Shown one piece after another: positions 42,610 through 42,642 of a stretch of DNA of 64,000 nt. The translations under genes were made by a program, and so were the position numbers. This DNA is from a virus (taxonomy: Duplodnaviria > Heunggongvirae > Uroviricota > Caudoviricetes), in the IMG/VR virus record IMGVR_UViG_3300045988_147305; one strand, written 5' to 3'. Under the pieces are notes generated by a model. It had not been told where the DNA came from. It did not search any database and saw only the letters and a list, made by a program, of their open reading frames with translations. Numbering within the stretch: the first letter of the stretch is position 1; each line of letters begins with the position of its first letter.

Positions 42610-42642
42610 GATGGTGATTCTACCGCTAGTCATTTGTTGAAT
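42610..42642 (-). promoter_or_regulatory. Candidate Lpa-dependent late promoter
   Basis: Minus-strand CAACAAATGACTAGCGGTAGAATCACC about 30 nt upstream of the ATG. Confidence 0.45.

Follow-up and report, generated by a model that had tools for sequence, protein, structure and literature searches.

Two near-identical minus-strand sites in a P1-type phage genome very probably represent the known Lpa-activated late promoters LP26 and LPsit

The closest described counterparts of the sites studied here are the late promoters of bacteriophage P1, of which 11 have been reported (PMC10695390), in agreement with the set annotated in the P1 record (LPmat, LPpro, LPlyz, LPdar, LPs, LPsit, LP23, LP26, LPpmgL, LPhot, and LPpac). 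In their common layout, a TAnnnT -10 hexamer without a -35 is preceded, across a 4-bp spacer, by a 9-bp inverted repeat centred at -22; this repeat, whose consensus is AAGTGACTT, constitutes the recognition element (PMC10695390; PMC3152322). Lpa, the late promoter activator, binds this sequence centred at -22, and the host protein SspA is required as well (PMC3152322; PMC1891329). In the model established for P1, Lpa would be the product of lpa, an early gene that C1 represses in the lysogen, and it would recognise the -22 box and, together with the RNA-polymerase-associated SspA of the host, would let the host RNA polymerase start at otherwise inactive promoters (PMC3152322, PMC1891329, PMC10695390, and PMC8201110 for Lpa/SspA activation and the early, C1-repressed Lpa). 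As in P1, the late genes of Mu (C protein) and T4 (gp55, gp33, and gp45) are positively controlled at promoters lacking a normal -35 (PMC3152322), but Mu C binds from -30 to -55 and T4 replaces sigma, whereas P1 uses the site centred at -22 plus host SspA, and the late promoters of Mu and T4 have no sequence relationship to those of P1.

The window, by which we mean the whole stretch of 64,000 nucleotides analysed here, matches phage P1 (AF234172) at 99.8% identity in positions 42000-44000 and at 98.5% in positions 9500-11000, the corresponding values for phage vB_EcoM-813R1 being 100% and 97%; from the identities to P1, it is judged to come from a P1-type phage or plasmid prophage. The unequal identity to vB_EcoM-813R1 in the two regions marks the window as a mosaic. 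By coordinate offsets (window 42000-59874 vs. P1 77868-90529), its pmgL-pacA span is about 5.2 kb less than that of P1, and a search of the window found the LPhot promoter sequence to be absent. The P1 record carries a "late promoter LP26" at 78485-78503 (-), with a -10 (78485-78490) and a "-22 region" (78495-78503) that an older entry, X87824, had labelled a "-22 repeat region", and a "late promoter LPsit" at 46608-46626 (-) with -22 and -10 sub-features, which is annotated at the equivalent P7 position too. Both annotated 19-mers are unchanged in the window (Table 1), where the two sites are sequence-identical to LP26 and LPsit and lpa is present in the same genome, and we found no difference of substance from the 11 P1 late promoters. 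The box common to LP26 and LPsit, AAATGACTA, is two mismatches away from AAGTGACTT, and that of LP26 doubles as the box of the divergent LPpmgL. We consider it very probable that the two sites are LP26 and LPsit of a P1-type phage, that is, Lpa-activated late promoters composed of an imperfect inverted-repeat box, a 4-bp spacer, and a -10 without a -35, on the basis of sequence identity, a held-out position matrix, the missing -35, operon position and orientation, the presence of lpa, and conservation in relatives. This interpretation is supported and was already known, both promoters being annotated in the P1 record and described; Lpa binding, the SspA requirement, and the start sites at LP26 and LPsit would follow from the P1 literature.

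Table 1. Coordinates of the late promoters, late-promoter-like site, operator, genes, and predicted hairpin in the window.
Feature	Position	Strand	Description
LP26	42617..42635	-	box AAATGACTA (42635..42627), spacer GCGG, -10 TAGAAT (42622..42617); identical to P1 annotation
LPsit	10052..10070	-	box AAATGACTA (10070..10062), spacer CTCG, -10 TAGAAT (10057..10052); identical to P1 annotation
LPpmgL, divergent	42627..42645	+	LP26 box on the other strand (TAGTCATTT), spacer GTTG, -10 AATATT; P1 annotation and exact window match
LP23	21632..21650	-	AAGTGACTT-TCAA-TAAAAT; upstream of major capsid gene 23; P1 annotation and window match
LPpac	59819..59837	+	ATGTGACTT-TCGT-TACCCT; upstream of pacA (GTG at 59874); P1 annotation and window match
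LPs (previously identified Ps)	1513..1531	-	AAGTTACTT-ATCT-TACAAT; P1 annotation and window match
C1 operator O26 (formerly Op82)	42660..42676	-	ATTGCACTAATAATTTT; gene 26/pmgL intergenic region, between LP26 and pmgL
Gene 26 (baseplate)	42210..42587	-	first gene 3' of LP26
pmgC	9454..10020	-	first gene 3' of LPsit
lpa (gene 10), late promoter activator	59335..59787	+	148/150 identical to P1 Lpa; Pfam PF25716 BPP1_LPA, E = 1.3e-56
Predicted hairpin	10027..10061	-	5' arm CTCGTAGAATC (10061..10051), 13-nt loop, 3' arm GATTCTACGAG (10037..10027)
Unannotated late-promoter-like site	40912..40933	-	AAC-AAGTGACTG-GTGA-TAACCT (AACAAGTGACTGGTGATAACCT); inside gene 7, 47 nt after the ATG at 40979

The original prediction had singled out two near-identical 18-mers, and these are indeed there: ATGACTAGCGGTAGAATC at 42616-42633 (-) and ATGACTACTCGTAGAATC at 10051-10068 (-), as read from the window sequence, are its only two matches at up to three mismatches, where 0.05 are expected in 64 kb, and the longer pattern AACAAATGACTANNNGTAGAATC, or AACAAATGACTA-NNN-GTAGAATC, matches exactly twice (42616-42638 and 10051-10073, both on the minus strand), with 0.00 expected. 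The proposed interval, 42610-42642, encloses the element, whose exact limits are 42617-42635, or 42616-42638 when the shared flanks are included. It also holds that the TAGAAT -10 stands without a -35 at both sites, since a consensus scan returned no sigma-70 -35/-10 promoter at 9900-10400 or 42400-42900; read by eye, the hexamer located 17 bp before the -10 agrees with TTGACA in only 1/6 positions at one site and 2/6 at the other, and neither LP26 nor LPsit has the -35 hexamer 16-18 bp upstream of the -10 that defines a standard sigma-70 promoter. The GTGACTTTC motifs that had been seen before the head gene (21640-21648, -) and pacA (59821-59829, +) are present as well and correspond to LP23 and LPpac. 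The window scan found one more copy at 24585-24593 (-), with no -10 downstream, and the count of this 9-mer barely exceeds chance (3 vs. 0.49 expected, with 3 of 100 shuffles reaching 3). Where the prediction has to be amended is in the recognition element: the P1 annotation of LP26 and LPsit agrees with the proposal of Lpa-dependent late promoters, but what the literature describes as recognised is the 9-bp -22 box and not the 18-mer, which takes in 7 of the 9 box bases, the whole of the 4-bp spacer and the -10 hexamer, and a single additional base.

Ten of the 11 P1 late promoters align as rAC-AAGTGACTT-N4-TAnnAT, LPhot, with its longer spacer, having been excluded from the alignment. Both LP26 and LPsit keep the exact 4-bp spacer, both deviate from the consensus at two of the eight specified box positions, and a conserved AAC lies immediately upstream of the LP26 box, at 42638..42636. 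We rejected the plain consensus scan as a discriminator, given that a box with up to two mismatches plus TAnnnT gives 10 matches in the window vs. 11.8 expected and does not separate LP26 and LPsit from chance (with up to one mismatch, there are 5 matches vs. 0.87 expected); thus, the call of these two sites rests on the extra flank positions, their location, and the annotation, and a position matrix including the rAC flank was needed. With such a matrix, built from seven late promoters and with LP26, LPsit, and LPpmgL held out, LP26 scored 17.7 bits and LPsit 15.9 bits, that is, ranks 5 and 6 among about 128,000 window positions, behind only three training sites and one unannotated site, while shuffled windows contained 0.16 sites at or above 15.9 bits.

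Each of the two promoters lies upstream of, and points into, a late minus-strand operon, with the gene 26 ATG (42587) 30 nt after the LP26 -10 and the pmgC ATG (10020) 32 nt after the LPsit -10, both on the same strand as their promoter. LP26 would drive the baseplate/tail operon 26-25-7-24-6-5, and LPsit would drive pmgC-tub-pmgB-sit-pmgA-bplA-16, including the tail-tube operon pmgC-tub-pmgB-sit; following the P1 model, Lpa and SspA would switch on both the 26-25-7-24-6-5 and the pmgC-tub-pmgB-sit operons. The activator itself is encoded in the same genome with 99% identity to P1 Lpa, and a C1-operator-like site is found at 59248-59264, just 5' of lpa, P1 likewise having Olpa annotated upstream of lpa.

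The LP26/LPsit element is kept in related phages while the flanks diverge. Upstream of gene 26, about 80 P1-like viral contigs all carry ACAAATGAC (also written CAACAAATGACTA) unchanged, with four spacers (GCGG, GCGA, GCAG, and TCGG) and three -10 hexamers (TAGAAT, TATAAT, and TAAAAT) among them; in Cronobacter phage JK004, whose gp26 is 86% identical, AAC-AAGTGACTC-agca-TACAAT stands 29 nt before the ATG amid unrelated flanks, and one more contig (L111) has AAC-AAATGACAT-gcct-TAATAT upstream of gene 26, again with otherwise unrelated flanks. On the pmgC side, homology among relatives begins 2-3 nt before the LPsit box, where the conserved sequence abuts at least five unrelated contexts (sim genes, upf50 genes, and others), and these junctions fit a promoter that would require nothing beyond about -25. 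The P7 LPsit (AF503408) has the same box, spacer, -10, hairpin, and distance to the first gene (named tubA in P7), and it differs in the unrelated sequence upstream of the box (upf50 genes vs. sim genes) and in one hairpin-loop base. JK004-like phages have a weak LPsit box, ACATGACAA or ATATGACAA. Since the box, the 4-bp spacing, and the TAnnnT are kept while the spacer sequence and the third -10 base vary, the functional unit would be the box plus the -10, and the constrained unit, as read from this comparison of relatives, is rAC + box + 4-bp gap + TAnnnT and not the 18-mer string. The exact limits of the element are thereby fixed as box, spacing, and -10; beyond this, the analysis shows that a real activator-dependent promoter class is recoverable from raw sequence and is otherwise of limited value.

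Several relatives were uninformative as tests of LP26. In Klebsiella, Leclercia, Vibrio, and Xenorhabdus elements, the gene 26 homologue lies directly 3' of a same-strand gene (mat, for maturation control, in the Klebsiella and Leclercia annotations) and lacks an intergenic promoter, and in phage D6 the nearby consensus site faces the opposite way; this D6 site, gacAAGTGACTT-tcat-TAATCT (L006 1059-1077, -), is a perfect consensus beside the gene 26 homologue and points away from it. As a separate observation, the LPpmgL -10, AATATT (42640-42645, +), is the most variable stretch of the gene 26/pmgL intergenic region among relatives, with at least six alleles in the reverse-complement reading (AATATT, ATTATT, ATCATT, AACATT, AAAACT, and GATATT) next to an invariant shared box, and because of this number of -10 alleles, LPpmgL may be weakly constrained and a less secure promoter. 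LPsit, for its part, stands at a recombination boundary, with variable cargo on one side and the tail module on the other (window 10071-10110, -; relatives L016-L108), given that unrelated cargo joins the tail operon 2-3 nt from its box.

The close likeness of the two sites might also mean that the 18-mer, or its 23-mer extension, is an element apart, either the site of a second regulator or a tuned promoter sub-class co-regulating the two tail operons, which we regard as improbable. Of the 45 pairs of late promoters, LP26 and LPsit show the highest similarity, with 21 of 25 aligned positions in agreement; the next best pair has 19, and the mean is 14.7 (sd 2.9). They also share two deviations from the box consensus, the -10, and the flanking AAC and C, besides both serving tail/baseplate operons. 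However, an agreement of 21/25 exceeds the mean by only about 2 sd, in a distribution that the common consensus has already shifted upward, and the pair-specific positions are lost in relatives, as the LP26 spacer and -10 vary within P1-like phages and JK004 has AAGTGACTC-agca-TACAAT at LP26 vs. ACATGACAA-ctcg-TAAAAT at LPsit; moreover, the CTCGTAGAATC part of LPsit is accounted for by a hairpin with the ribosome-binding region. Given that this excess similarity is small and is lost in JK004, we do not read the pair as a separate element.

Even less credible, to the point of being very hard to sustain, is that the sites are not promoters, or are ordinary sigma-70 promoters that are either constitutive or under C1 control, their similarity then being due to chance or to a relic of duplication. 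TAGAAT is certainly acceptable as a -10 hexamer, the LP26 box has a C1 operator about 25 bp upstream of it, and the P1 record predicts sigma-70 promoters farther upstream of both operons, but a -35 is absent at LP26 and LPsit in the sigma-70 scan, zero chance matches are expected for the 23-mer, a matrix blind to both promoters recovers both, and the box, the spacing, and the -10 are kept amid unrelated flanks. The identification of the sites as the Lpa-activated promoters LP26 and LPsit is the reading that we keep in what follows.

Only two points of this analysis may be new, namely, a hairpin at LPsit and a site inside gene 7. That LPsit doubles as a translational insulator of pmgC and that, separately, gene 7 contains a twelfth late promoter which increases the expression of genes 24, 6, and 5 are possibilities which, taken jointly, we put forward tentatively and with rather more doubt than confidence. 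If confirmed, the hairpin and the gene 7 site would be modest additions to P1 biology.

The predicted hairpin measures 11-13 bp. Its 5' arm, CTCGTAGAATC, takes up the spacer and -10 of LPsit plus a single additional base, and it is the perfect complement of the 3' arm, GATTCTACGAG, which overlaps the GAGG ribosome-binding site of pmgC (10029..10026). The RNA hairpin has a predicted free energy of -21.2 kcal/mol (z -5.1), and among 18 distinct alleles, its pairing is kept in 94.9% of cells, with two pairs changing on both sides, such as the compensatory change from TAGAAT/ATTCTA to TAAAAT/ATTTTA in JK004-like phages. The predicted cost of opening the pmgC ribosome-binding site is 13-17 kcal/mol in read-through RNA vs. 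6-7.5 kcal/mol in LPsit-initiated RNA, a difference of 6-11 kcal/mol, and with shuffled upstream sequence as the control, the excess cost of read-through is 11.2 kcal/mol (z 7.0), reached in 0 of 100 shuffles; the contrast is one of opening energy only, as a test of the unpaired probability of this ribosome-binding site gave none. No annotation of this hairpin feature is found in the P1 or P7 records. It was rejected as an intrinsic terminator, being uncalled by the terminator scan and having no U run after the stem, and the actual terminator upstream of LPsit is at 10174-10197 (-).

In the mechanism that we propose, a transcript started at LPsit, which cannot contain its own -10, would be without the 5' arm and would be translatable; only RNA entering from upstream would thus form the stem, and read-through RNA from the variable accessory genes expressed in the prophage would have both arms and would be poorly translated. 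If confirmed, LPsit would be a promoter also acting as an anti-ribosome-binding-site sequence, shielding the tail operon from the read-through of swappable cargo genes. A comparable arrangement is the "fold-back inhibition" of IS10, in which a sequence able to mask the ribosome-binding site precedes the start site of the element's own transcript, so that only transcripts from outside form the inhibitory stem. The analogy with the LPsit hairpin is functional only, with no sequence relationship between the two, and the LPsit case is a prediction.

Such a hairpin is not a general design of P1 late promoters, and we rejected it as such, because only LPsit stands out, the other nine being within noise and LPdar marginal; LP26 has no leader structure (z -1.1). 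By eye, LPdar and LP23 had seemed to carry such a hairpin too, but LP23 is within noise in the opening-cost test, and the read-through penalty of LPdar is marginal, at 3.9 kcal/mol (z 2.4, 5 of 100 shuffles). LPdar, upstream of the holin gene lydA (P1 record 31183-31230, outside the window), has CCTCCT right after its -10, complementary to the AGGAGG ribosome-binding site.

The site inside gene 7 (Table 1) is oriented toward genes 24, 6, and 5, and with 21.6 bits it is the best match of the held-out matrix outside its training set, compared with a mean maximum of 14.4 bits and a top score of 22.1 bits in 100 shuffled windows. At the same gene 7 position, JK004 has cAC-AAATGACCG-GTGA-TACGCT, with the box, the spacing, and the TAnnnT kept despite amino-acid changes. 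The metagenome scan gave only two allele families, one P1-like and one JK004-like, and therefore coding and promoter constraint are inseparable at this site; D6 was rejected as a further test, since no gene 7 homologue is annotated downstream of its gene 25. If confirmed, this would be an extra late promoter in a genome whose transcription map, with 11 late promoters, counts as complete.

Some further elements were noted in the window. At 21570-21588 (+), AAGTTACTC-aatt-TACTCT, with one box mismatch, lies antisense over the start of the capsid gene 23 and points toward parS; it could be due to chance, 0.87 such sites being expected. An Rfam scan gave a match to the sok antitoxin RNA at 15323-15497 (+), with 89.7 bits, which suggests a hok/sok-type killer system in the phage, and the same scan found a C4 RNA at 11780-11865, its a1b1 targets at 11660-11712, and three tRNAs at 32911-35137.
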